Below are positions 27,301-63,644 of a stretch of 64,000 nt of DNA, piece by piece. Source of the stretch: Azolla caroliniana. Lineage: Eukaryota; Plantae; Polypodiophyta. Both the position numbers and the translations under genes were made by a program. Below the pieces are notes generated by a model that saw only the letters and a list, made by a program, of their open reading frames with translations, was not told the origin of the DNA and did not search any database. Where the stretch lies: assembly GCA_043228905.1 (NCBI GenBank), contig JBHGNT010000011.1, forward strand, positions 9,114,001-9,178,000. The letters run 5' to 3'. Positions within the stretch are counted from its first letter, which is position 1. Each line of letters begins with the position of its first letter.

Positions 27301-27982
27301 AAAGTTATAATGTAATTTTATATTACCTGACCTCGATTTTAGCACCGAGGGCCTCCAATCCTCGCAAATGGATATCAATGGGTCTTGAACCTATGCAACA
27401 ACCACCTGGAAGGGCTAGTATTGCTTCTCCATGTCGTGCAACAAGAGCTCCGATCACAAAGAAACCGGCCCTAATCTTCTGAATGGCATTCACACATGGT
27501 TCAGCAGATGCAAGACCTCTTGCATTGATATATACATCAGATCCACATTGCCGAGCATGAACTCCCAATGACCTTAGCACTTGGAGCATCATTTTAACAT
27601 CAAGTAAGTCAGGAACCAACCTCAAACATACCTCTTCCGAGGAGCATAATGATCCCGCTAAAACTGCCAATGCAGAGTTTTTTGCACCACTGATGTTCAC
27701 ATGGCCTGAAAGCTTATTTCCACCGATAACACTGAAACTATCCAGCTGAAGCGAAGGTCCTTGACAAGGAGGTGGTGCCACCACTGAAAGACTCATGTCG
27801 AATTCAGTTGGAATGGCTAAGGTAGCTTGAATGGGTATGGAGGTATAGAGAGCTCTTGGGTATATACCATCCATAGACACAAAAAGATGTTGCCTTTTCC
27901 TCATGTTTCTTCTGGAGAACGACATGTGGGAAGATTTAAGCAAACATGGGTTCCATCCATATCTACAAACCAGGGCATCCAT
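15118..27982 (-). CDS. murA: UDP-N-acetylglucosamine 1-carboxyvinyltransferase (MurA), spliced, 6 coding exons, ~504 aa, probable plastid transit peptide
   Basis: Exons 27982-27327, 27167-27017, 19426-19142, 19072-18916, 18809-18731 and 15304-15118 join in frame (1515 nt) across five GT-AG introns (phases 2,0,0,1,2). MurA motifs appear in order: [88 protein letters not shown]. The start ATG at 27982 is the first in-frame ATG and is less certain than the rest. Confidence 0.95.
15361..18480 (-). mobile_element. Decayed LINE filling murA intron 5 (same orientation as the gene)
   Basis: The minus strand reads [17 protein letters not shown] (~17450-17520) and [23 protein letters not shown] (~15950-16020). 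The 3' terminus at 15400-15361 matches the 3' end of the LINE at 52906-52944. The 5' boundary is approximate. Confidence 0.8.
18731..18809 (-). CDS. murA: murA coding exon 5
   Basis: Acceptor TTTAG|CC, donor AG|GTATCA; reads (A)[25 protein letters not shown] and restores the frame between exons 4 and 6. It does not appear as its own ORF in the ORF track. Confidence 0.9.
18916..19072 (-). CDS. murA: murA coding exon 4
   Basis: Acceptor CTCCAG|ATT, donor G|GTAGCA; contains [14 protein letters not shown] and VFENRMSH. Confidence 0.95.
19142..19426 (-). CDS. murA: murA coding exon 3
   Basis: Acceptor TTTAG|GAA, donor CAG|GTAGAA; reads [11 protein letters not shown]...[15 protein letters not shown]...GILQ. 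Confidence 0.95.
19790..26631 (+). mobile_element. Decayed outer Ty1/Copia in murA intron 2, interrupted by a second Copia
   Basis: [12 protein letters not shown] and integrase remnants at 20100-20930. RT-end/RNase H ([34 protein letters not shown]) at 25700-26140. Polypurine tract (PPT) AAGTGGGAG, then a probable 3' LTR TGTTG..CAACA at 26276-26631. Boundaries are approximate. Confidence 0.75.
21913..25648 (+). mobile_element. Inner Ty1/Copia, RT-deleted, 5' LTR 21913-22365, truncated 3' LTR from 25467
   Basis: PBS TGGTATCAGAGC at 22366-22377. Motifs: gag, [59 protein letters not shown]. The LTR similarity is directly visible. Confidence 0.92.
27017..27167 (-). CDS. murA: murA coding exon 2
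   Basis: Acceptor TTTACAG|G, donor CGG|GTATGT; reads [50 protein letters not shown]. Confidence 0.95.
27327..27982 (-). CDS. murA: murA coding exon 1 (N-terminal extension plus N-terminal MurA region with the Lys22 and Cys115 equivalents)
   Basis: Reads MDALVCRY...[18 protein letters not shown]...[28 protein letters not shown]; donor AG|GTAATA at 27327/27326. Confidence 0.92.
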
Positions 27983-30900
27983 TTGTTTGCAAGCCCTAAC
28001 TAGATAATAAAGCAATGTAGTATGGCACAAAGACCCTTTCACAAAAGATGCAACAAACCCTAGAATACCATTGCTCAAGAAGAAGATGATGATGAGGGGG
28101 AGGAGTTAACCTTGTAATTGCAAGAAAAAACTAGGTCTTCTACATAATCAGCAGACCCAATATGAATGCATGGTGCACATTAATTCTCGTGGTGGAGAAA
28201 AACAATCTAAGCCTATCCTCCTTCTCCCTCCGCTTCCCTGGTTGTCAGTCTCTTTTCCGGACCACTTCGTTTGGGTTATCCCATTATCAGTTCAAATAAC
28301 ATTTTCTTCTCTCTGCTCCTTCTCATTCCATCTCTGATTTGGAGAGGCCGTCGTCAAAACCCAGACCACTTTTGCCGTACCACACCAAACTCGTTCTCCA
28401 CTTTAATTATTTTTGCTATTGCAGCTAATCAACACACATTTCTTACATGATTTCAAAGTTGAAACAAAGCATTTTGGGTCCTTCATGGTTTAGCACTCAA
28501 AGGATGATGCTAGCTCAAGGGTGTCACCAAAATACATGTGTGTGCACTGAAACGTGAGTGAGACCACCAGGGACTTGAATCATAGAGGATGGACTGGACT
28601 CGATTTGTGACCTTTGGTCCTTGGATTTTCTTATATTCTTTTCGTACACTTGTGTAGATATGGATAAACTTAATTGGAAAATTAATTAGAAGAAAGAGAT
28701 ATAAGATTTGTGGATACTTATACAATTGACGAATAGAGCTTTGATGGGATGTTCCTCAAGTTTCGGTTCAAAGGACCAACAAGACTATTTCCTTGCCTAT
28801 TGTTATCAATGATCTTGAACATCCTCTTGATTTGCTCCCCTAAGCCCGTTTCGAAATTCCAACAATTGAAGCGCCTTGATCCAAAATCCAACCCCTTGAC
28901 CATGAGCTCTCCTCCTCCCGTTTTAGGCCTCCAAAACTCCTCCAACTTATAAAAACAATCTCTCTTTTTAGCATGCACTCATTTTCCTCGAACACATACT
29001 CTAAGAAAATTGTTAATCTTCATATCCATCATCGTACATCTCTTAATTCAAACAAGACTTCAACCTTTGACATTTCATTTATATTGTGTGCTCTTGATTA
29101 TTGAGCTAAGCTTTTTTGTTATCTTTGATTTTATCTCATTTCATGTTCTTCTTGTTATATCTGTTGGAAAAAGATCCTAACAATATCCCCTTTCTTTCTC
29201 AAGCATAACCCATCATAGGATATCATAGGGCATAAAGGTGCCTCTCATAACGCGTGTCCATCTTTTCTTGTTTCCCATTTTTATTCATTCTACATGAGTC
29301 ACATAATTTGGTATGCTAAGCTTGAGCTTGACCCCACAACTTCCTTTTTCTCTCGATGCTCCCCTGTCACAAGCATCCTCTTTCGTTTCAACTCTCTCCA
29401 TTCCATTAAAAAAGGTCTTGATCTTTGAGACTTCAATCATAGTGACACGCGATGGGTTGTCAATCTTCCTTTCCTTGTCAAAACTACGTGAGGTCGAGCA
29501 AACATCGATGGAGAAAACTATAGGAATACCACTGGATGGATATACAAATTAGCATTATGATCACATTAGGGCCTTCAAGAAAAAGAGTGCAAGCGAGGTG
29601 CATGCTAAAAAGAGAGAACTATTTGGTGGGACATCGTGTACTTTGTTGATAATTGGATCCATTCATTGGAAACATGATGAACTATAGGCACCAATTTCAA
29701 TCGTGGAGGAATGTGTTGGAGTTTGGGACCGTCAGTGCGGAAACATGAACAACACCTTTGCTAAGAAGATCACCAAGTTAGCATAGTAAAGCAAGATCAA
29801 GGAGACAGATAGACAGGCACACAATGTGTAACTTTATTATTCAAAACTCAACGTTACAACAGAAATGGATGCAACAACCCTTTGGGCTAGGTTACAAAGC
29901 CAGTTATATACTAACTGGACTAGGGCAACTGGCCTTTGACATATTTACAGAATTGTCCTAAACCTAGATTGTCCAATGGACAATGTGAATACGGCCATTA
30001 TACACCCGTATTTGACACTTCCCCGTAATGGGCGTATAGACTATGGAGAAACCTATAATATAGAACAAGATGTACATGTTATACAAAGAGATTCTTGAGT
30101 GGATAGGGAGTCGGATTCGCTCCGATCCGACTCGGCTCAGTCGGTGTCGTACTCCGACATCTTCATCTTCCCTTTCTCTTTCCGTGTGAACCGTCTCCTC
30201 GGTTCCTTGCGTGGGGAGAGCACATTTGAGTCTTCACTGCTTGTTGGCTCTTCATCTGACTGGTCATTCCAACTTAGTCGCTCGTTCGGCCCAAACAGCC
30301 GAAATGAGATCGAACTCTCATCTAAAGTCCAGAAATCTTCTTCATCTACGTGGACCTCTTCGACCTCACTAGCCTCATCTTCCGGAATTGGGTTGGAATC
30401 GGGAGTTGGGGTCGATAGAGAGTACCAAGATGCCGACTCATCAAATTTGACATCGTGACTTACTCGAACTTGCTTAGTTCGGGGCTTATAACATTTGTAC
30501 CCCTTCTTCTCATGGGAGTAGCCAACCAATATGCACTTCTCTGACTTCGGGTCTAACTTCCTACGTCTCTCATATGGCACATGCACATTGTCTATGCTAC
30601 CAAATATCCTAAGGTGTCTTCAATTCGGTTTCCACCTGAAATACAGCTTGCGCGTTGACACATTATCCCCGATCCGGTTCTGAATGTAGACGGCCATCCA
30701 AACCACCTCTACCCAGTAGAACTTGAGCATGCTTTTCTCCTCAAGCATCGCCCTTGCTGCGTTGACAATCAACCGGTCCTTCCGCTCGGCAATGCCGTTT
30801 TGTTCTAGCATGTACCTGCAACTGAATTCCTTCTTGTTGTAGATACCGGTTGAATTGGCTGGAAAAGTACTAATTTCCACCATCCGACCGTAGACACTTG

Positions 30901-39099: not shown

Positions 39100-40035
39100 A
39101 CAAGGAGTTTATCGATGAGCGAGGAATTCGGCAAGAAGAATTCTGATTCCATTGCGATAACAAAAGTGCCATCCACCTTGCAAAGAATGCCGCCTACCAC
39201 TCGAGGACCAAGCACATCCAGAGGAGATATCATTGGCTCCGAGAGCGAGTAGAAGAAAAAGAGTTTGCTCTAGCAAAGGTGCACACAACGAAGAAAGGGC
39301 CGGACATGCTTACGAAGGTTCCGTCAGACGAAAAGCTGAACGAGTGCCGGAAAAGGATAAGATTGGTGAACTACCCCATGCCGGAGTGAAGGGGGAGTTT
39401 GCTGGGAAAACAAGTCCCCCCGGATGGGAAGAAGAGAACGAACTAAATCGAAGACACATGGCTAATTCAGTCGAGGCCGAAATCGAAATCGTTTACATAT
39501 AACCGATTCAGGAGTGTTGAGAGATCAAGCTCAACTTAGTTTAGTTAGTTAGTCAACAATGTAACTTCGTAGTTACCTAGATAGAATCTAGTTAGAAGTG
39601 TTGACTATAACGCCTTAAATAGGACCTTGTACTTAAGTGGGATATTCTAGATCCTCCACTCCTAAGTACATTTAATATAGGACTTACACATTAGTATCTA
39701 TATTCTACTCACACATGTGCACCTTTGCACATGAGATGTATATATACCTCATTGTGGGTATTTTTGTATTTGACGATGATAATGCCAATTTAATATACTT
39801 ACTCATCCCCCATCTTGTGTTGTATCTCTCTCTCTCTCTCTCTCTTCCTCTCTCACACATACACACACATATCACTTAATCTTCCGCTTATCAACTAATC
39901 ATATAATTAGGTACTAATTAATCCTTGCTTAATTACTTACCTAATTCTTAACAAGGAGACTATATTTGTAAATAGTCTGCTATGTATATGAGTATATATA
40001 GACTTAGGGCAAGTAGTTAGAAATATGAATGTGAT
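39100..40035 (+). mobile_element. Copia RNase H end, PPT and partial 3' LTR
   Basis: HCDNKSAIHLAKNAAYHSRTKHIQRRYHWLRE; GAAGGGGGAG PPT at ~39388; the LTR is interrupted by the solo LTR at 39515-39953. Confidence 0.8.
39515..39953 (+). mobile_element. Solo LTR (family C) with TSD AGGAG
   Basis: TGTT...AACA termini; AGGAG at 39510-39514 and 39954-39958; homologues at 40036-40415 (inverted) and 63221-63644. Confidence 0.92.
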
Positions 40036-40138
40036 TGTTAAGAATTAGGTAAGTAATTAAGCAAGGATTAATTAGTGCCTAATTATGTGATTAAGTTAAG
40101 CGGAAGATTAAGTGATATGTGTGTGTATGTGTGTGAGA

Positions 40139-40184
<46 letters not shown>

Positions 40185-40415
40185 CACTTATAAACAACAC
40201 AAGATGGGGGATGAGTAAGTATATTAAATTAGTATTATCGTGATCAAATCCGAAAATACCCACAATGAGGTATATATAGATCTCATGTGCAAGGGTGCAC
40301 ATGTGTGAGTATAATATAGGTACAAAAGTGTAAGTCCTATATTAAATGTACTTAGGAGTGGAGGATCAAGAATATCCCACTTAAGTACAAGGTCCTATTT
40401 AAGGCATTATAGTCG
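40036..40415 (-). mobile_element. Truncated family C LTR, inverted
   Basis: Reverse complement of ~39603-39953. Confidence 0.9.
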
Positions 40416-41240: not shown

Positions 41241-41740
41241 AGTAGCCAACACAACTGACAAAGAGAACTAGCACAAAGACAAGGCTTCATCTTCCAAAGA
41301 AGAGCGGACCACAACATGGACAAAGGAATGGTAGCTCGCTTCCGATGGAAAAGCTCGACATGAGCAACTACATGTCTTGGTTGTACAAGATGCATTAGTA
41401 CCTACTCGAACATGGGTACTGGAGCTATGTCAAAGGTGTCACGGACAAGTATAATAGAGCAAAGCGAAGACAAGACTAGAAAACAAGAGAGAGGAAAAGA
41501 ACAAGAACTTAACTTAAAGAATCCGTAATTGGTGTTGGTCACCTTGATTAGAATCAAGGTGCACCTGAGTATTTATACAAGAAGGTAGGGCTATGTAAGC
41601 CAACTAGAAATAGAGTATGCATGAGGATGCATGCAATAGAGAATGCATGAGAATGTGTGCAAGCTAGAAATGAGGATGCATGCAAGCTAGGAACTTCCAA
41701 TGTTCAATCTACACTATGAAGTTGGATTTGGTACAAGGAT

Positions 41741-41810
41741 GCATATGTAGCTCAATTGGTAGGGTTGCCCAATAGAGACCACGAGGTCTTGGGTTCAATC
41801 CCTATCTTCC
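41741..41810 (+). promoter_or_regulatory. tRNA-derived Pol III A-box/B-box cassette inside the family D LTR (copies at 45930-45999 and 59358-59428)
   Basis: A-box TAGCTCAATTGG at 41748-41759, variable-loop-like GAGGTC, B-box GGTTCAATCCC at 41792-41802. The T8-to-T54 spacing is 46 nt, as in a tRNA; no convincing anticodon arm. Confidence 0.7.
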
Positions 41811-43133
41811 TCCGTGGCATATGTCTATGACACTATCCTCCCTCTAAGGCCGCCTCCTAACACCCATGGCCGGTTTATGAGGGTATTGTTGATGAAAAGC
41901 ACGAATTGCCTCTAGTGCATTTTGTAAATGAGTAATTGGTTCCCATGTGGCATCCGAAAGAGGGTAACCTTTCCATAAGACCATGTATTGAAGTCTTCGT
42001 CGACACAAGCAGGAGTTGAGGATCCGGTCAACCTCGTACTCCTCACTTGTCGATAATTCCACGGTCGGCAGCGGAGGAGGTTGTCATCCCGGAATGCGAG
42101 AAGGATGGCAGAGTTCGAGGAGAGAGACGCGGAAAACATTGTGAAACCGAAATGTGGGAGGAAGTGCTAACCAGAAGGTGACTGGGTTAACGCATTCGAC
42201 GATACGGAAGGGGCCTAGGTTTTTGTAGTCGAGCTTCACGCAGGGAGTGGTGACGTAGCAGCCAAACCATGTTACTGCGAAGGTCGGCACGGCCAAGCGA
42301 TGTCGGTCTGCGTGAGCTTTATACTGTTTTCCAGCGGCATGGAGCTCGAGGGAGAGGTCACGATGGACATCTTGTAAGGTGTGGGCACGCCTCTCGGCCG
42401 ACGGATTGACGGAAATCTCTGGAATGGAAATGCTGAAACCAGGGTGGAAACCATAGTTTAGAAAGAATGGGGAAACCTTAGTTGAGGCATGGATACTATT
42501 ATTGTAGGCAAATTCCGCCATGGCAAGGAAGTCCACCCGATCGTCTTGTTGGTAGCTGATTGGACACTTGAGGTATTGTTCGAGGATTTGGTTGACTCTT
42601 TCGGTTTGGCCATCAGTTTGAGGGTGGTGCATGGTTGACAAGTTCACAAAAGTCTCGAGTGTTTGTAGAAGTCGGTGCTAGAAGTGGGGGATAAATTGAG
42701 GACCTCGATTAGAAGGGACATCCTCAGGGAAGCCGTGTAATCTGACGACATTTTTCAAAAAAAGGTCAGCCGTCTCCTCCCCCGAAATGGTTTTCGAACA
42801 TGGGACAAAGTGAGCCATCTTCGAAAACCAATCGACGACCACTAGCACCGCGTCATTGTCACTGACCCGAGGAAGGTCGGTGATAAAGTCCACGGAGAGA
42901 GATGCCCAAGGTCGATTGGGAATTAGAAGTGGGTGTAGAAGGTCGTAGGGACGATGGTGAGCCACTTTGGAGCGAGCACAAACGTCACAAGTTTTGGTAA
43001 ATTCTTTGACCAATTTCCAGGATTGGGGCCACCAAAAGCCCTGAGACAGCAACGACAACGTTTTCGCGACCCCAAAGTGTCCAACAAGAGGATCATCGTG
43101 GCAAGTTTGTAGGACTCGGATACGACATGTGAC

Positions 43134-43555
43134 TGTCACGGACACACCAACGCTAGACTACGACAAAGCACAGATGACAAGGCTACGATTGATAAGGTTA
43201 GGAACGTGGAACTCGACGTGATGAGGCTAGAAACTCGGGAAGTTGGGAGCGATGAGATGAGGAACTTAAGATGGTACTAACAAATACAAGAGCATAAAGA
43301 CAAAGATGTAAATCAAGGAGAGAAGATGGGGCTAAACAAGAATACTAGATTGATGTGTCAATGATTGGTGTTGAATCCCTTGAAAGGGATGAAGGAGGTT
43401 ACAAGTATTTATACTTTGAGTCGAAGTACATGCATTAGAATATTCTGGAGATTATTCAGGAGAATATTCTAGAACCCTCTAGAACCATCTGGTTCTAGAA
43501 CTTTCTAAAAACTCCTAGGAGTTGAAATCGATAATCTACTAAGATATATATAACA
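43134..43555. mobile_element. LTR fragment at the RT/RH deletion junction of the family D element
   Basis: Begins TGTCACGGACA and is non-coding; no TSD found. Confidence 0.6.
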
Positions 43556-46302
43556 TGATCATATATTTGGCCGAATGGCATCACTTTGTACTCGAAATGT
43601 CCATAGCGCATCCGAAAAGCCGTTTTCCACTCATCACCAAGCTTGATGCGCACCAAATTGTAGGCGCCCTAAAGGTCGATTTTGTAGAAGATATGCCTAG
43701 TTCGGACTCGATTGAGGATTGTTGGAATTAAGAGTAGGGGGTAAGGATTACACACCGTAACTTTGTTGAGACCCCGATAATCCACACATAAGCGTAAGGA
43801 GCCATCCTTCTTTTGACAAATAAGATTGGTGCCCCAACCGGTGATTTGGAGGGTTGAATGAAACCCTTTGCGAGATTCTCAGCCAGATATGTGCGGAGAG
43901 CCTCAAGTTCGGGTTCAGATAACCCATATATAGGATTGAATGGGGGATGCTCGCCAGCTTGGAGTTCGATTGGGCAATCGTAGGGACGATGATCTGGTAA
44001 CCGATTGACATTCCGCTTTTCGAAGATGTCGGAAAAGTTGCTATATCGGACAGGTAAATTGTTGACAGGAACGGTGACGTCCCCCGACACAACGGCCAGT
44101 CCAACGACCAAACCGGACTCGACCGCAACGGAATCAAGAGAGTGTCGTGACCTAGTAGGAATTGGGCTTATTGGAAAAGTGATGGAGCGGTTACACCAAT
44201 CCACGTCGGATTGTGTGTCTCCAACCAAGATAGCCCCAACACAATTGGATGTCGGGGGGTTGCGATGAGGTAGAACATGAGTACCTCCTAATGCGGCCTG
44301 ACTTGAAGTACCAATGGGATAGTGGCTTCGGTAACCGCCCCCGAAGAGAGAACCCGATCGTCGATCGCCTCAATAGATATGGGTTTTGATGTGTGGACGG
44401 TGGGGATATTATGTGCGCGGACAAAGGATTTATCGATAAAGCAAGTGGATGATCCGGAGTCGAGCAAGGCATGAGAATGCATTGAAGTCGAACCAAAACA
44501 AAGACTTACTAATGGAGGAACGGACTTGTAGGAGCATGGAGAAGGTGAGTAACGGGAAGCGTCCAGTGGCATGACTCCCACTACAACCGGACTTGGTCAT
44601 TTTCCTGTTGTCGAGGAACCTCCCCAAGACGTGGATGATGGAATTGGTGCCATGGGCCCCGCACCAGGCAGTGGCGGATGACATGGTCGGGGTTGCCACA
44701 ATAGAGACAAAGTCCATTGTCCCGACGATGTTGGCATTGGGCTTCAGTTAGTGGTTGGAACCAAGTGTGGCCGATCTCCATCGGGGTATGGAAATAGACC
44801 TTCGTCGTGGTATGGGTATCACTGGGTGATGGTAAGGTTGGAGTGGGAGACAAGGAGGGCTTGGCGATTGATGCGTTTCGGGAAGAAGCCTGAGACCCGC
44901 GAGTCTTGACGAAGTTTGAAGAGACGATTGTCACACTAGATAGCTTGGGAGGTTACTTGAGACAATGATGTGGGCTCCGGGAAGTTTAAGAGTAGAGTCT
45001 TGATGTTGTTTCGGAGACCTCAACGGAAATGGTTGTATAGGGCTTGGTCATCCCAACTGACATCGTAGGCAATCTCACGGAACTCTGAGGCGTAGACTGA
45101 GGCTAGACGTGAGGCTTGTTGGAAAGAATAAAGCTTTGTGAGTGTCGTTGGTCGCCAGTCTGTCTCGTCAAATGTCACTTCGAGCTCCTCAATGAAAGTG
45201 GTGAAGTTTTCTAAGAGAGGGGATGAGGTCTCGATCAATGGTGCAAGCCACGCTTGCGCCGGCTTGGAGAGAAGCATGCCGACAAGCCCAACCCAAGAAA
45301 AGTCGCTAGCATACCGTTGGGGCTGTAACCAGATGTTAAGTCGAATTTGGTTGATGAAGCCATGAAGATACGCCCTCGTACCGTTGAATTTGTCCGGTAG
45401 GTTGATGGTTGGTTCGAGGACATATGGATGGGAAGACAACGTGGTCGGGCTAGGTGCCGACAGTGGTTGTGACTCGGCGGGTGGTGGATTTCTTGAAGTG
45501 CCAGATTGAAACTCTCGTAATGATTCCCGAAGGATTTCATTCTCTAGCTAAAGTTGTTGCAAGACTGCCATGACTTGGTTTAGGTTGTCGACAGAGCCGG
45601 ACATGGTACCAAGAAGAGGGCAAGGTGAACAAACTGTCACGGACAAGTATAATAGAGTAGAGCGAAGACAAGACTAGAAAACAAGAGAGGAAAAGAACAA
45701 GAACTTAACTTATAGAATCTGTAACTAGTGTTGTTCACTTTTTTTAGAATCAAGGTGCACCTGAGTATTTATACAAGAAGGTAGGGGCTATGTAAGCCAA
45801 CTAGAAATAGAGTATGCATGTAATAGAGAATGCATGAGAATGTGTGCAAGCTAGAAATGAGGATGCATGCAATCTAGGAACTTCCAATGTTCAATCTACA
45901 CTACATGAAGTTAGATTTAGTATAAGGATACATATGTAGCTCAATTGGTAGGGTTACCCAATAGAGACCATGAGGTCTTGGGTTCAATCCCTACCTTCCT
46001 CCATGGCATATGTCTATGACAAACGGAGCTAATGATGTAGCACCAAAGTCAACGCACAAAGATTTCCCAACTTGGGAGCAAGCACCACGCCAAGTCTTGT
46101 ATTGCTTTGCCTTGTGTGTCCACAACCACATGCTAGGGTATAAAAGGGATGTGAAGTCACAGAAGGATGCTTGGGGGAACCTGAAGTGTGGACACATGCT
46201 AAGGTATAAAAGGGATGCGAAGTCACAAAAGGATGCTTGGGGGAACCTGAAGAAGGTCTTCCTTGCCAGCACCACAACCCAGAAGTTGCAACTCTGCCAA
46301 GA

Positions 46303-48052: not shown

Positions 48053-48348
48053 TATCATGATATGGCAAGACTCGAACCCATGACTTTATGTTAAATGGGT
48101 CGAGCTCTTGACCATTAGCCTATATGTTGTAATACAAAAGATATTATTTTCATTTAAGTTTTACTATAGAAATTTGATGTATATTCCAGATTTCTCTGAA
48201 ACATTCTAGAAACTTCAGGAGTACTCTTGAGAACACTATAAAAGGAGGCACAAGGCATTACTTCGAACCAAATCGGTTCAACGCCAATCTTAAGCCTCCT
48301 AGCTACTATTTTATATTCTCTTAACATAATATATATCTTTTGTTATCA

Positions 48349-48417: not shown

Positions 48418-48420
<3 letters not shown>

Positions 48421-48667
48421 AAAGTTCTCTGTTAGTTCACTCCAGCCATCATTTCTACATTCTATAGCTTGTTGGAAAGCTCTTCGAGAGAGCTTTCTAA
48501 AGAATGTTCATTTACTGAATTCCGTTACTGTGGCGAGAAGTTATGAACATTTTCATCCGTAGCCATCTTTGAACGGAAGGTAGATTTTGAAGCCCTAAAT
48601 CGAGTGAAAGGTACATTCTCTCTCCTTCCCTCTCTGTCTCTCTCTTCTCGTAGGGTTTTTCCCTACA

Positions 48668-49537
48668 ATGGAAAATACTCGTAAAACCGCCGCAAAGTTC
48701 GGGGGTATGATTGATAATGAGCCAAGATCACCAACAAATCTCGATTCTAATGCAATGGACAAAATGCTTATGAGTCACTTGATTTCTCTTCAAGAAACCA
48801 TAAACAAGCAAGGTGAAGAGATTAGGACGTTAATGAAAGAGAATGCTAAGCTCCAAAGTGTTGTCATTGAGAATGAAAGTCTTAAACAAGTGGTAGCAAA
48901 ACTTCAAGAAGAGATTCAAGAATGTAAAAGAGCTTCTTTTGAAATAAATGAGTGCCTTAACAAGATTGAGTTAAAGGAAGCATTAAAAGAAGAAAAATTG
49001 GACACGATGAGGTGGGATGTAAATGAGATGAAAAATGTATGTACAACGAAGTCATGGGCCGATGTATGTGGTGGGGATGTGCTATCAAACTCATCTAATA
49101 TGCATGTGATGCATCAAGAGAAGAATATAGAAAGCATAGATGTCTGAGAATTGAATGAATGTGAACGACGATCAAAGAACATTGTCGTTTGTGGGATTAA
49201 AGAAGAGAGTATGGAAACACCCGCATCCCTTGGAAAGGCCATTGGTGAATTTTTTAGCATGCATTATGGGATGTCATATGTGAATGTATATGGGGCACAC
49301 TGAGTTGGGAAACATGGTGTTACTCGCTCCGGAGAAAGGCCTATTGTATGCACAATGACAGATGATACAAAACGACGGATCATACTCAAAAATAGTTGGG
49401 TATACCTCAAAGGTACACAATGCTTTGTGAGTGAAGATCGTACTATCTCACAACAAAATGCTCGCTGTAAAGCATATGAAGAAAGATTGAAAAATAAGGT
49501 TAAGGATGTGCCTAAAGATGGAAATGTAGGCAAATAG
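48668..49537 (+). pseudogene. LINE ORF1 (coiled-coil region plus RRM-like region), with in-frame stops
   Basis: Heptad-rich LQETINKQGEEIRTLMKENAKLQ..., then RRSKNIVV.G and FVSEDRT motifs typical of LINE ORF1. Confidence 0.75.
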
Positions 49538-49543
49538 GGACAT

Positions 49544-52500
49544 GTGATCTATGAGACTAACCCACGCCTTTTACGACTATGCTTTTGGAATTGCAATGGA
49601 TACCCATGGAATGCGGGATTTGGCATAGAGGAGTTCACCGATGACTTGGATATCACACTTCTTGTTGAAACATGGGAGTGTGATACTCAAAAGATTCAAG
49701 GTTTAGGAAACTATAATGTACACTCTTTGATATGGAAGAAAAATCCAAGACAAAGAAGAGGACAAGGAGGGGTGGCATGTTTGATTAAGAAGGAAATAGA
49801 GAAATATGTGTCAATCATAAAAAATGATGAAAATAAATGTTACATATGGCTCAAAATAGAAACACCTAATGATTTGCCCACTTTTGTAGTTGGATGTTAC
49901 ATTCCTCATCAAGATTCTAACTTTTATGCTTGTTTGGATAAAGATCAACCGTTTGCCAATCTAGAAGACAATATTGCTTATTTCAAATTCAAAGGGGAAG
50001 TTATTGTCTTTAGTGACATGAATGCTCGTACAAGAAGTTTCCAACTTGATTCACAAGAATCTTTCATGCCATATATCTCAAGGATGCAAGAGGATATGCA
50101 AATGTATAATCGCTCTTCTAGCGATGAAAAAGATCCGGACCAATTTGGAAAGTTACTGCTACAAATGTGCAATAGTACCGGATTGCTTATTGCAAATGGT
50201 ATTTCCTTATGGCCCAACACTAATGGTTTTACATATAGAAAACACAACAGAAATAGTGTGATTGATTATGTGCTACTTTCCGAAGGTATTTTGGATTGTA
50301 TACATAAATTCTCACTTGGTGAATGGACACCGGAATCCAATCATAGGCCTTTATGTATTGATCTCAAATGTATGCATAGGTTTGATTGTGAGAAGGCTAT
50401 TGAAGATAATAAACAACCGCACTTGAGCATGAACCTTAAGCGAGCACCCATGTATTCCAAGATGGTTGAGGATATGTTACAAATGACAAAGATACAACAT
50501 GGTGCCACACTAGAATGCAAATGGGAAGCTTTCAAGAAAGTCATTCTCTCTTGTACAAACAAATGTTTTCGACCAACCACACATCTTGGAAATGCACCAA
50601 GAAACTTAGGAAAAAATGGTTTGATAAAGAATGTCGTGAAGCTCGAAAGTGCCGTATGGTTTTGGATGTAGTTAAGGATAAAGAGAATTACCAAAAGCAT
50701 TTGCATGACTATAAAAGGCTTATTCAAATAAAGAGAAGAATATGGGAAGTTACTCAACAATTTATCCAAATGCAAGAGAAAGCACATGCATGTGCTAAAT
50801 TTTGGGGAAATCTAAAGGGGAAACGTTTTGAGAGTTATGGTGACTTAACTCTTCACGACTTGTCTATGCATTGTAAGAATTTATATGAGTTATCTCTTGC
50901 CAAAAAGATGATGTGTTATGGTTCTCTTTCACATATGCCTCCCTTCTTTACAATTGAAGATATATGCATAGGACTTACGAAATTGGCCTCTCGAAAGGCA
51001 AGCGGTCTTCAATGTATAAAGGCTGAAATGCTCAAATGGACGGGAAAGGAAGCACATATACGGATAAGTGATATGTTTAATGATGCATTGCAACATGGTA
51101 TGCCGTACGATTGGACTACAAATTAGATCAAACCTTTACATAAAGGTGGAGATATAAATAATGTAAACAACTATCGAACCATCATGGTTGGCTCATTAAT
51201 GGCAAAACTATTTGGATGTATAATGGAATCAAAGATAAGTGTATGGGCTGAAAAAAGTGGTAAGAGAGCTTATGGACAAGCTGGCTTTCTGAAACACCAT
51301 AGCACCATTGATCACCTTATCACCCTTCAAGTATTAATGGAGGAAAGTCTTCTTAAAGGTAAAGGTTTATATTGTTGCTTTGTAGACTTCAAGAAAGCTT
51401 TTGATATGGTACCTCGTGAGCATCTTTGGAGGCGAATGGAAGAACTTGAGGTGCCAAGTGAATATATGCTTGCAATTTCCCGAATTTATGAGAAGGTTAT
51501 ATGTTGTGTGCTCATGAGAGATAAACTTTCAGATTTTTTCAAAAGCACTATTGGTGTTAAGCAAGGATGCCCACTCTCACCAACACTATTTGGTCTATGC
51601 ATTGGTGAATTGGAAGAAATGGTTACCAAGTTTGCAAAGGAGGAATGTGTTGAAGAAGTTGCCATTGGGAATGTTGTGATTATGCTTTTGCTATATGCAG
51701 ATGATGTAGTGCTTTTTGCAAATACTTTAGGAGATGCACAAAAGCTTATGAAGGCATTGGAAAAAATTTGCATGCATACTAAATTAAGTGTCAATAGCTC
51801 TAAAACAAAGATTATGCTTGTGAAGAGCCAAAAAGAGATAAACCATGCATTATGTACAACAATGAGCCACTTGAATGTGTGGAAAGCTTCAAATATCTTA
51901 GCCTTGAAGTTCCTTCAAATCATAGATGGAATGAATGTGCTACACGCCGCTTAGAGGTGGGTAAGCGAGCATACTATGCATTTGAGAACACATGCAATCT
52001 TGGGGATATTAAGTGTTGGGTCCTCAAGAAATATCTTTTCGACACTTTGGTGACAATGGTTCTTCTCTATGGGGTGGAAGTATGGGGCGGTTGCATCCCT
52101 AAATCTATGTGGAAAGAGTTTGAAAATGTCCAAAAGCATTTTCTTACCAAGTTTTTACAAGTTAAGAAACAAATCCCCTACACCCTCCTCCTCCTTGAGA
52201 CGGGATCGCTTCCCATTGAGATCATGGCCATGGAAAGGGTTGTTGAATACATGCTTAAGGTTCAAAAAAGTCTCGCACATCAACTTCCTAGAATTGCGTG
52301 GGAAGCAAGCAAAAAGATCCAAAAGACGCATAAAAGCAAAATTTTGTGTTCCGTTTGGATGCAAGATATAGAAAAATAGTGTGGTAGATGGGATGCGAGA
52401 CACTTACTTCATGATGCATCATTAGATTCCTCTGTAAATGAGGCATTTTTGCAACGCCAATGTATCATGACATGGGACAAATGTGGAGGCTCACGCTTCA

Positions 52501-52905
52501 CACATTATACTACACATGTTGCACCTAACTACACATGCGGAATGGGAAAATCGTACACATCCATACATGTTAGAGCCCATACCGTTATCTGCCATTCGAA
52601 TCATTGCTTCCATGCGACTTAGCTCACATGCATTGCAATGTGAAACAGGGCATTGGGGCACAAGTGATGAGAGTGGTCGGCTATGCACACTTTGCCCTAA
52701 ACAAGTTCGCGAGTCAAAGTATCACACTTTGATACAATGCTCTACCTTTGATCATATTCGACCACGCTTTCCACATCTCTTCAATCAAGCCCAATCTTTG
52801 CATGAATTCCTCTCACAACCACAATGTGCACTCTCGATTGCAACATTCATTGGTAAAGTTCTTGAACATCGAGAGTCACTACTCACTTTCACATGTATCA
52901 TGTGA
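49544..52905 (+). pseudogene. LINE ORF2 (AP endonuclease, reverse transcriptase, C-terminal CCHC), frameshifted
   Basis: FWNCNG, LVETW, GCYIP, SDMNART, IDYVL, SNHRPL; NYRTIMVG, QAGF, FVDFKKAFD, GVKQGCPLSPTLF, LLYADDVV, FKYL; LSSHALQCETG..CTLC..H..IQC. Confidence 0.93.
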
Positions 52906-54438
52906 AATGTAATATTTTTGGTCTCATAGGTCATATTTGACCTCCGAAGACGATAATATAATCTATCTATCTATCTATCTATCTCCCCTCTTCTCTCGAG
53001 AGTTCTACACCTCCCTTAGTACTAATCCTCATCTTTTAGTATTAATTCCTTCTCTGTCTTAGTATTGTTCTTGACAGTTTGAACTGATTTCAGTCTCCTT
53101 CCTTCTCTTCCTTATCTTCTTACTTCTCGCTCCCTTCATACTAATCTCTTATTCCTCTTTTCTCTCATACTATGGTCACTGTTAGCGCTCAAGAATATAA
53201 ATCCGTTTTCTCGAAGTTGCAATGCTTGAAAGAGAAGTTTCTCGCATTGGAACAAGAAAATCAACGACTATTGGGGGAGCTTCAACAAATCTCCTTAAAG
53301 AAGCAGTAGATGCAACAACAACATGGGGAACTAGCGTTACGTGTGCAACAGCTCGAAGAAACCATAGTAGCGATGCAACAACAAGGACCCAGTACACAAG
53401 CGATTCATAAAGAACCCAAGATCGGCCTTCCCATGAAATTCGATGGAACGTGATCGCAGTTTAGATGATTCTTTAATCAAGTACAATTAGTCATTCAAAT
53501 GCATCCTTCCTGATATCCCACCGATGCATCACGAGTGGGTTTAGTAGGCACATTGTTAAGTGGTTCAACTTTGGCATGGTTCGCTCCACTGTTAGAAAAG
53601 GAATCTCCTTTACTAAACAATTTTGAAGAGTTTTTAAGTGAGTTTAAAGCCTGTTTTGGAGATATTGACAGCATAAAGACAACAATCAACAAAATCCGAC
53701 GGTTACATCAAGGTGATCGTCCGGCCTCCGCATACGCTGTAGATTTCCGCCTACTCGCCTTCGATATCCCCTGGCATGACCGAGCACTAATGGAGCAATT
53801 TCATTATGTTCTACGTAACGATGCCAAGGATTTACTCTTGACAATCCCCGAAGAACCAAAGTCATTGACATAAGCAATCAGTCGCGCGGTGAGATGCGAC
53901 AACCGTCTTTTCGAACGACGTTCGGAATGTCAGTTCTAGATGCCAAGGGCAAGATCAGAGCCCACCTACGCCTTTGTGGTAGCAAAACCTTTTCCAAGGG
54001 AGTCATATAATGCATCTCCAATGAATACTCCAACTCCGATGGAAATTGACGCTACACGTCGTCGCGGACCATTAACGGAAGAAGAAAAGCAGTGACGTCG
54101 AGCAAATCAAGTATGTCTTTATTGTGGTGGACCAGGGCATATTGCAATGAACTGTCCCCATAGGCCAAGAAGACAAGTAAACCAAATAGTTGCTAGTTCT
54201 AATTGTACTAAACCCGAAACTATTTCAGTAGGAATATCTGATAGTCCTAATAGTACTAATAGCCCAAATCTATCGAACAAATTTGATGTCCTTAATCAGT
54301 TAGAAGAAGAGTTAAATGACTAAGTCCAACCAAAATAGGAGCCATTTGGTTGGACAACCCTAGATCTGTGCAACCCATTAGCGGTTCTATTCCCTCTAAG
54401 CAAGTTAGCAATGTGTTCTTAGTCCAAGTAATAGTTAG

Positions 54439-57775: not shown

Positions 57776-58502
57776 CACTCATCGATAAAGGTTACATCAT
57801 TTTATGCTTATACGAGTTGTCACCCCCGGTGTTGTGTATTTGAAACCCCAGAGTAACCCACAAATCCTTGTGCAAAGGATCATTTGGAGTGGTTACGCAA
57901 GATACAAGCGGATTCATCTACTCATCTACAACAAGCTCAACAAACACACAAGGTTTACGTGGATCGTCATCGGCTTCCATCCATTTTTAACATTGGAGAT
58001 CGGGTATGGCTACTATGATGACACATCAAGACTACTTGCCCATGCAAGAAGTTGGATTATCGTCGATTAGGTCATTTCCGTATTATCGAAAAAATTAATG
58101 ATGTCGCTTTTCGTCTCAATCTACCTCCACAACTTCGAATACATCCGGTGTTTCATAGTTCTCTCCTCAAACCCTATTAAGATAGCATCATCCCAGGTTG
58201 TATTAAACAACCTCCACCCCTGATTGAACTTGAAGATGGACCTGAGTACGAGGTTGTTGTCATCCTCGATTACAAGCTCTACTATTTAGTAGATTGGCTA
58301 GGATATAGTCACAACGAATGTACTTGGGTACCAATAAAGAATGTGACCAATGCTCGTGCTCTTCTCTTCTTGAAGACTTCCATCATCAATATCCAGACAA
58401 ACCGGGTCCTCAATCCAAAACGATTCGTGACCCTCGTCGTTTTAAAAGGGAAATACGACTCGTGACCCTCGTCGTTTTAAAAGGGAAATAGTGTCATGAT
58501 AT

Positions 58503-58565
58503 GACAAGACTCGAACTCATGACCTTATGTTAAATGGGTCGAGATCTTGACCATTAGACTATATG
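58503..58565 (-). promoter_or_regulatory. tRNA-derived A-box/B-box cassette inside the family E LTR (second copy ~48063-48125)
   Basis: The minus strand reads TAGTCTAATGGTCAAGAT...AAGGTCATGAGTTCGAGTCTTGT. T8 (58561) to T54 (58515) is 46 nt; the D and T stems can pair. Confidence 0.7.
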
Positions 58566-58787
58566 TTGTAATATAAAAGATATTATTTTCATTTAAGTTT
58601 TACTATAGAAAATTGATGTATATTCCAGATTTCTCTGAAACATTCTAGAAACTTCAGGTGTACTACTGAGAACACTATAAAAGGAGGCACAAGGCATTAT
58701 TTCAAACCAAATCGGTTCAACACCAGTCTTAAGCCTCCTAGCTACTATTGTATATTCTCTTAACATAATATATATCTTTTGTTACCA

Positions 58788-59017: not shown

Positions 59018-59450
59018 TGTCACGGACGAGTAGAATAGAGCACAACGAAGACGAGAGTAAGTACTAAGAGAGAGAATAGACAAGAGAAAAGAACAAGAAC
59101 TCAACTTATGTTTTGTAATTGGTGTTATTCACCTTTATTAGAATCAAGGTGCGGCTGAGTATTTATACAAGAAGGTAGAGGGATGCATGCAAGCTAGGAA
59201 TAGAGAATGCATGAGGATGCATGCAAGCAAGGATTAGAGAATGCATGAGGATGTATGCAAGCTAGGAATAGAGAATTCATGAGGATGCATGCAAGCTAGG
59301 AAACTTCCAATGTTCAATCTACAATACATAAAGTTGATTTCATAGAAGAATACATAAATGGATGTACCTTAGTTGGTAGGGTTTCCCAATGGAGACTAAA
59401 AGGCCATGGATTCAATCCCTACCTTCCATCGTGATGTAGCATCTAGTGAT
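59018..59450 (-). mobile_element. Solitary LTR related to family D, with ~35-bp internal tandem repeats
   Basis: TGTCACGGAC start and colinear similarity to 41437-41832; GCATGCAAGCTAGGAATAGAGAATGCATGAGGAT repeats at 59181-59300. The right end is uncertain. Confidence 0.8.
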
Positions 59451-63220: not shown

Positions 63221-63644
63221 TGTTAAGAAATCAAGCTCAACTTAGTTTAGTTAGTTAGTCAACCATGTAACTTCGTAGTTACCTAGATAGAATCTAGTTA
63301 GAAGTGTTGACTATAACGCCTTAAATAGGACCTTGTACTTAAGTGGGATATTCTCGATCCTCCACTCCTAAGTACATTTAATATAGGACTTACACATTAG
63401 TACCTATATTCTACTCACACATGTGCACCTTTGCACATGAGATGTATATATACCTCATTGTGGGTATTTTTGTATTTGATGATGATAATGTTAATTTAAT
63501 ATACTTACTCATCCCTCATCTTGTGTTGTTCATAAGTGTATCTCTCTCTCTCTCTCTCTCTCTCTCTTCCTCTCACACACATACACACACATATCACATA
63601 AATCTTCCGCTTATCAACTAATCACATAATTAGGTACTAATTAA
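63221..63644 (+). mobile_element. Family C LTR, 3' end truncated
   Basis: Closely matches 39515-39921. Confidence 0.9.

Follow-up and report, generated by a model that had tools for sequence, protein, structure and literature searches.

Many families of protein-coding Ty3 retrotransposons in Azolla caroliniana carry a tRNA-derived cassette with an A box and a B box, a predicted type-2 RNA polymerase III (Pol III) promoter that is fixed in the U3 region of their long terminal repeats (LTRs) and lies antisense to the element. The earlier note had described this cassette in a single chromovirus family; it extends well beyond that family and occurs in most of the chromovirus families sampled in this genome.

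Cassettes and carrier elements in the window

The window, which is the whole stretch of 64,000 nucleotides that was analysed, contains a decayed 4.6-kb element of family D1 on the minus strand (41437-46021) with TG...CA LTRs. The 3' LTR occupies 41437..41832 with its U3 tip at 41832, the 5' LTR (45635..46021) is 91% identical to it, and the element is flanked by the target duplication AAAGG/AACGG, in which four of five positions match. The decayed internal region (41833..45634, minus strand) retains gag, protease, part of the reverse transcriptase (RT), integrase, SH3, and chromodomain. The polypurine tract (PPT; 41833..41846, minus strand) adjoins the 3' LTR, and the chromodomain (41877..42083, minus strand) matches Pfam Chromo with an E value of 4.7e-15. 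This copy is dead and is missing about 1.9 kb, comprising the end of RT and the RNase H (RH) region, when compared with a full-length D1 relative of 5.86 kb. The Ty3 order PR-RT-RH-INT with a C-terminal chromodomain is intact in the relatives F and E2, whereas the RH region is deleted in the window copy, and full copies of the carrier families measure 5.3-5.9 kb and have open pol frames. A tRNA primer-binding site (PBS) is absent from the Tcn1-type carriers; it is replaced in D1 by a self-priming site (45621..45634, minus strand) complementary to sequence 31-35 nt past the TATA box. The complement is an 8-nt exact match in the decayed window copy and reaches 11-12 nt, located 32-33 nt past the TATA box, in four of the five better-kept elements tested. 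Judged from its sequence, namely domain order, chromodomain, and self-priming, the D1 carrier appears to be a Tcn1-type chromovirus, and its earlier assignment to the chromoviruses is borne out by the Pfam integrase, SH3, and Chromo domains.

The cassette of the 3' LTR lies on the plus strand at 41741..41813 (tRNA-frame positions 1-73), antisense to the element. Its A box, TAGCTCAATTGG, spans 41748..41759 (T8 = 41748), the variable-loop motif AGGTC spans 41784..41788, and the B box, GGTTCAATCC, spans 41792..41802 (T54 = 41794), all on the plus strand. The cassette of the 5' LTR (45930..46002, plus strand; T8 45937, T54 45983) has the same A box, AGGTC, and B box, and T8 and T54 are separated by 46 nt in both. 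The LTR end is 39 nt from T54, with the cassette on the plus strand and the element on the minus strand. The boxes in both LTRs, the variable loop, the tRNA-like spacing, and the outward direction near the LTR end are thus as the earlier note had reported; likewise, its scrambled anticodon arm was recovered, with none of five stem pairs formed in the one window copy tested. The strict A+B pattern occurs at two places in the window versus 0.03 expected from 30 Markov shuffles. A CpG-bearing D-type pattern gave no matches. A TATA box at 41570..41577 (minus strand), part of a putative LTR Pol II promoter, is separated from T8 by about 170 nt and stands back-to-back with the cassette. Because the self-priming complement places the transcript start, the cassette can be assigned to U3, beyond the TATA box. 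It is directed away from the genomic RNA and therefore cannot be the promoter of that RNA.

The diverged relative named in the earlier note was also recovered, with equal spacing and altered boxes. It is a D2-type LTR copy (59018..59433, minus strand; outer end ill-defined) that is 75-77% identical to D1 and represents a second subfamily with the same layout, its cassette having T8 at 59365 on the plus strand. In addition, the window holds a second chromovirus family, E, which the earlier note had overlooked. This plus-strand element has a different cassette of its own in the same place and orientation as in D, at the tip of its 5' LTR (48053..48129, minus strand; T8 48122, T54 48076) and of its 3' LTR (58492..58568, minus strand; T8 58561, T54 58515).

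Several other features of the window were recorded. The TC microsatellite in the 5' LTR of family E contains a LINE (about 48420-52960) with an endonuclease (49538-50671) and an RT (51127-51954). A lone A/B-box-like stretch at 1100-1170 lies inside a repeat shared with two other loci (L202, L205). An LTR-like repeat at 39515-40414 and 63221-63644, with a long inverted pair around 39900-40090, had no detectable cassette. A match to EPSP synthase (27323-28105, minus strand; Pfam E 6e-26) stands among the retrotransposons and is either a gene exon or a captured piece.

Distribution among Ty3 families

The genome-wide search covered the element's own genome (523 Mb) and returned 1035 first-look candidates for the D LTR. 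When loci were fetched with a cassette-free LTR query and scored by alignment, the cassette was present at 25 of 30 D loci; the remaining five were truncated, interrupted, or partly deleted, and there were no clean empty sites. The family E LTR gave 3339 candidates, and its cassette was visible by eye at all 30 loci fetched by a cassette-free query.

A chromodomain-anchored sample was drawn from 30 loci and 80 regions, mostly among the 150 matches listed, together with loci from other searches, and it yielded 140 distinct 3' ends, the tip being located in 132. Across these tips, which are non-independent copies of about 10 families, antisense A and B boxes occurred together at 112 of 132 (0.3% in shuffles), and an antisense B box stood within 80 nt of the tip at 128 of 132. 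No sense cassette was present at any of the 132 tips, and no A+B cassette was present in the next 130 nt of LTR beyond them. The loci of the cassette census were chosen by other searches, and its counts come from a mismatch pattern, since a PWM scan under-counted GAGTTCGA boxes. Both boxes were found in nine of ten Tcn1 families (in family J through a copy in L282), and family G has a degenerate remnant. The integrase ends of the chromodomain families are 53-71% identical to that of family F. One family F copy has 100% identical LTRs, an open 1208-aa frame, and a perfect B box 14 nt from the tip with 53-nt spacing; U3 tips as short as 14 nt from T54, including that of family F, still have the B box. 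T54 lies 14-51 nt from the integrase-processed end in Tcn1 families, and a near-tRNA T8-T54 spacing of 44-47 nt is held in most families.

Metagenome contigs that share families with this genome provided 43 loci, of which eight were too short or tipless. The cassette was present at 25 of the 35 located tips, none of the 35 had a sense cassette, and further families were added. In a Tcn1 clade from another host (37 loci, three dropped), the cassette was absent at 34 of 34 tips; the integrase tree, a quick search with midpoint root in which 58 of 60 rows were kept, all of them from this genome or the metagenomes, does not separate gain from loss for this cassette-free clade. Cassette types do not match the tree exactly, as F resembles H and m373, while its sister m321 resembles m323, and this mismatch suggests LTR exchange between Tcn1 families.

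Cassettes are also present in elements that are not chromoviruses. Family K is a Phygy-like Ty3 family that lacks chromodomain and SH3 and has 1-kb LTRs and a tRNA PBS, TGGTGAACC..., which we take to be that of tRNA-Trp. Its antisense cassette is located 186 nt from the TATA box and 575 nt from the tip. Several Phygy-like non-chromovirus families have a cassette in the same orientation as the Tcn1 families, 118-575 nt from the LTR tip. An NCGN target duplication was seen at one related element and at one family K flank. One Phygy-like family (L406, L165, L207, L264) has two different antisense cassettes in tandem in U3. In a position-ordered sample of Trp-primed loci, an antisense cassette occurred at 3 of 30, each in a different family; the other 27, including the dominant Trp-primed group, had none. 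The own LTR of Met-primed loci, mostly of one family, was without a cassette in 30 of 30, and of two outlying cassette matches among these loci, one belongs to a neighbouring E LTR. Since the cassette is absent from the Trp-primed majority, the Met-primed elements, and the Tcn1 clade of the other host and is degenerate in family G, it is dispensable for success. Over all representatives, T8 lies 118-276 nt from a TATA-like site in 16 of 19 (those in which a site was found), whereas the LTR tip may be as near as 14 nt or as far as 575 nt.

Descent and conservation of the cassette

Scanning with tRNA models, as the earlier note had proposed, gave a divided outcome. ARAGORN called no tRNA for the window cassette, and an Rfam search of 41400-41900 gave no tRNA match, whereas the tRNA model aligns over its whole length with a related D3 copy that has a perfect 7-bp acceptor stem, the score of 25.4 bits falling short of the cut-off of 29. 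Descent from a tRNA is supported because the D3 copy matches the whole model. Among 37 host tRNA sequences, a set without many isotypes, the best parent scores were tied between Ile, Asn, and Asp. The cassette had no match to 5S rRNA, and its boxes are of type 2. A functional tRNA gene was ruled out by the missing ARAGORN and Rfam calls, the lost anticodon arm, and stem pairing at chance level.

No target duplication or tail of its own was found for the cassette, which, together with the lack of a clean empty site, rules out an independent SINE insertion in single LTR copies. To that extent the earlier note was right that the cassette is not a SINE insertion; the statement needs qualification in that a free SINE-like repeat exists, here called repeat X, whose cassette is 86-89% identical to the D-type cassettes. 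Repeat X is about 205 bp long, has 2250 first-look candidates with 95% pairwise identity, and lies inside GA tracts with unrelated flanks. It starts about 13 nt before T8, near the expected start of a Pol III transcript, and at each of its ends stands a tRNA-like head that faces inward, one of the two being of D type (L269-L293, for example G000:C11:12160539-12160748). Its second head was found alone with a TC tail in L437. From this arrangement, repeat X may be a SINE with a captured LTR tip or a two-headed SINE. Its D-like cassette shows that sequence has passed between LTRs and a SINE-like element, one way or the other. Biased loci totalling 1.77 Mb, with 206 cassettes, yielded no free donor for the E, F, H, I, and K cassettes. 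The cassettes likely originated by capture of one or more tRNA or SINE heads, followed by LTR exchange between families. The end of a LINE similar to that in the window abuts a GA tract in L273, which suggests microsatellite targeting and a possible partner for repeat X. Tandem arrays of tRNA-like heads were noticed in L260 (1600-2200) and in L124 near 3132, and a genome-wide scan with the tRNA model returned 58,716 rough first-look candidates; copies of tRNA-Lys and tRNA-Ile occur in clusters (L061-L080). In genomes of this kind, LTR cassettes may be counted as tRNA pseudogenes and raise their number.

Between families, the boxes and the variable loop are better kept than the anticodon arm and the flanks. 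Among nine deep-branch Tcn1 representatives, identity reached 0.78 for the B box, 0.70 for the variable loop, and 0.51 for the A box, compared with 0.28 in the anticodon arm and 0.33 in the flanks, the box values being partly circular as boxes were located by pattern. The Phygy-like cassettes have the same pattern of box versus arm identity. All 21 of the 21 cassette representatives have G46-T47, which lies outside the search pattern, compared with 24 of 34 host tRNA genes. The B-box consensus G53 T54 T55 C56 R57 A58 C61 is present in 17 of 17 representatives, partly by selection of the sample. In contrast, stem pairing is at chance (acceptor 2.95 of 7, anticodon 1.57 of 5), and the cassette has no conserved RNA fold. 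Boxes kept while the cloverleaf is lost are the signature of a DNA promoter that has outlived its RNA product, and the pattern points to selection on such a promoter; that selection acts on the cassette at the level of the element is, in our judgement, highly probable.

Within families, the boxes decay at the background rate, contrary to the expectation that they would be better conserved than the rest of U3 among copies; read literally, a refuting condition named in the earlier note therefore applies. In D1, decay was 0.076 in the boxes and 0.091 in the rest of the LTR (P = 0.28), and no protection was found in D2, E, F, or K (P = 0.76, 0.80, 0.48, and 0.09, respectively). B-box CpG decay was 5/36, 5/91, and 1/16 versus 138/613, 280/2909, and 45/777 elsewhere, with no significant difference, so that a methylation shield is not visible. 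The within-family test mostly tracks neutral decay after insertion, and therefore the comparison between families is the informative one. The idea of a type-2 Pol III promoter is accordingly upheld in part: the cassette is tRNA-derived, fixed in U3, antisense, and kept between families in a promoter-like pattern, but box protection within families did not emerge.

Predicted role and relation to known systems

Where small-RNA promoters are known in LTRs, the elements are short, non-autonomous TRIMs, which are thought to use these promoters for their own transcription. The cassette described here faces away from coding elements with a normal TATA layout, and its retention therefore needs another reason. 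In the available text on Helenus, or TRIMp3 (Kojima 2024, PMC10886601), tRNA-like A and B boxes are described in both LTRs, with no functional tRNA and a probable SINE origin. These elements are non-autonomous, 311-1263 bp long, and have a tRNA PBS; one plant case, Selaginella, is given. The same text states that "not a few" Repbase LTRs have tRNA-like sequence, limits its analysis to TRIMs under about 1 kb, and expects Pol II promoters in autonomous partners. The present cassettes resemble Helenus in having A and B boxes fixed in both LTRs. However, the tRNA-like part of Helenus is, according to its supplement entries, sense and is proposed as the element promoter, whereas the cassette here is antisense in U3, and the carriers here are gag-pol elements of 5-7 kb with a TATA box and either self-priming (Tcn1) or a tRNA PBS (Phygy-like). 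Membership in Helenus/TRIMp3 was ruled out by the protein-coding carriers and the antisense cassette. Cassandra TRIMs likewise keep an internal Pol III promoter inside their LTRs across lineages, as far as the accessible parts of PMC7215508 and PMC10886601 describe them; theirs is a 5S type-1 promoter with terminators that transcribes a non-autonomous element, whereas here a type-2 promoter lies antisense in a terminator-free LTR.

The carriers share with the Tcn1 chromoviruses of non-seed plants an aromatic-residue chromodomain, no tRNA PBS, self-priming, and short LTRs, as given in the available text of PMC6317226 and PMC2864245. In that text no Pol III element is mentioned, and "polymerase III" has no occurrence in PMC6317226, supplements aside. 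The earlier note had suggested that the arrangement might be undescribed. This does not hold for tRNA promoters in LTRs as such, which the accessible part of PMC10886601 reports for TRIMs. It stands for the antisense form in autonomous elements, of which we found no description in the literature searched, with Repbase reports, most subscription papers, and the supplements of PMC6317226, PMC2864245, and PMC6786969 lying outside the search.

We favor, at close to an even chance, a reading in which the cassette is a putative site for the docking of TFIIIC and TFIIIB that faces away from the adjoining LTR Pol II promoter and acts as a local barrier. According to the available text of PMC12409998, the B box is the main TFIIIC site, and in yeast and human, tRNA genes and ETC sites occupied by TFIIIC serve as barriers to heterochromatin. 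From the B-box match, we infer that TFIIIC would bind the cassette. TFIIIB would then assemble between the cassette and the TATA box, and the docked factors would prevent closure of the adjacent LTR promoter and restrain silencing that comes from the flank. The benefit would be a barrier or the exclusion of nucleosomes and would be greatest where elements insert in chromatin rich in repeats. Each new copy would have the site outside its promoter, since the U3 of the new 5' LTR derives from that of the 3' LTR. tRNA-gene and ETC barriers and the boundaries at B2 and MIR SINEs are similar in that B-box sites are proposed to recruit TFIIIC and limit heterochromatin (PMC12409998 and PMC8136502, accessible parts). 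They differ in being host loci or SINEs that serve the host, whereas here the putative site is in the promoter of an autonomous element. In the available text of a review of plant barriers (PMC9540200), TFIIIC barriers are cited for yeast and animals only.

Other roles for the cassette, or none, have to be weighed against such a barrier. The cassette could be kept for an antisense Pol III RNA of 75-190 nt, running from the 3' LTR across the U3 tip and the PPT into the chromodomain region and serving siRNA seeding, interference, or packaging. The A box and the 44-47-nt spacing kept in most families go beyond what TFIIIC binding alone needs, the upstream DNA is A+T-rich (0.63-0.88) in 20 of 20 LTR cassettes, and the start of repeat X relative to T8 fits such a transcript. 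We nevertheless consider this explanation unlikely, as no terminator lies within the LTR, the first T4 being 73-192 nt past T8 at 3' LTRs and 149-1981 nt past it at 5' or solo LTRs, a conserved RNA fold is absent, and the transcript of family K would cross 575 nt of U3 instead. The position of T54 close to the integrase-processed end in Tcn1 families raises the further idea of a B-box function on the cDNA or during integration, with TFIIIC near the LTR end tethering the integration complex to Pol III/TFIIIC sites or marking LTRs as targets. Ty3 targeting itself runs through TFIIIB. However, the cassettes of Phygy-like elements are 118 nt or more from the tip, no tRNA genes were noticed on (uncounted) inspection of the flanks of D, E, and F copies, and Tcn1 carriers already have a chromodomain, which makes a role at integration very improbable.

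Finally, the cassettes might be neutral relics of SINE heads that entered U3 in one or several captures and were then copied along, in which case the conservation of their boxes would mirror the SINE donors. Decay at the background rate within families is what this would predict, and the young free repeat X with its D-like cassette offers a route for repeated refreshing without any LTR function. The deviation of cassette types from the integrase tree, the existence of whole lineages without a cassette, and the SINE-insertion origin that Kojima proposes for TRIMp3 (PMC10886601, available text) point in the same direction. Yet place and orientation are equal in nine of ten Tcn1 families, orientation is equal in the Phygy-like families, and sense cassettes are missing from both tip samples. 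Moreover, the spacer is saturated while the boxes are invariant, repeat X targets GA tracts and not U3 tips, and the biased loci offered no free donor for the E, F, H, I, and K types. Taken with this evidence, we hold neutrality to be rather unlikely.

On the barrier reading, autonomous elements of two unrelated Ty3 lineages within one plant lineage would each have equipped U3 with a predicted host Pol III pre-initiation site. This would be a barrier against silencing that acts in cis and accompanies each new copy, and it would have spread thousands of TFIIIC sites over the genome, a conclusion we put forward tentatively and at somewhat less than an even chance. The young intact families E2, F, and K and the cassette-free lineages stand in the same genome and provide built-in controls. 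If the cassettes are neutral, they nonetheless supply a large amount of unannotated tRNA-like sequence and are a source of SINE-LTR exchange. If they are barriers, they would reveal a new means by which retrotransposons remain active within silenced chromatin and would offer a ready test of TFIIIC insulation in plants.
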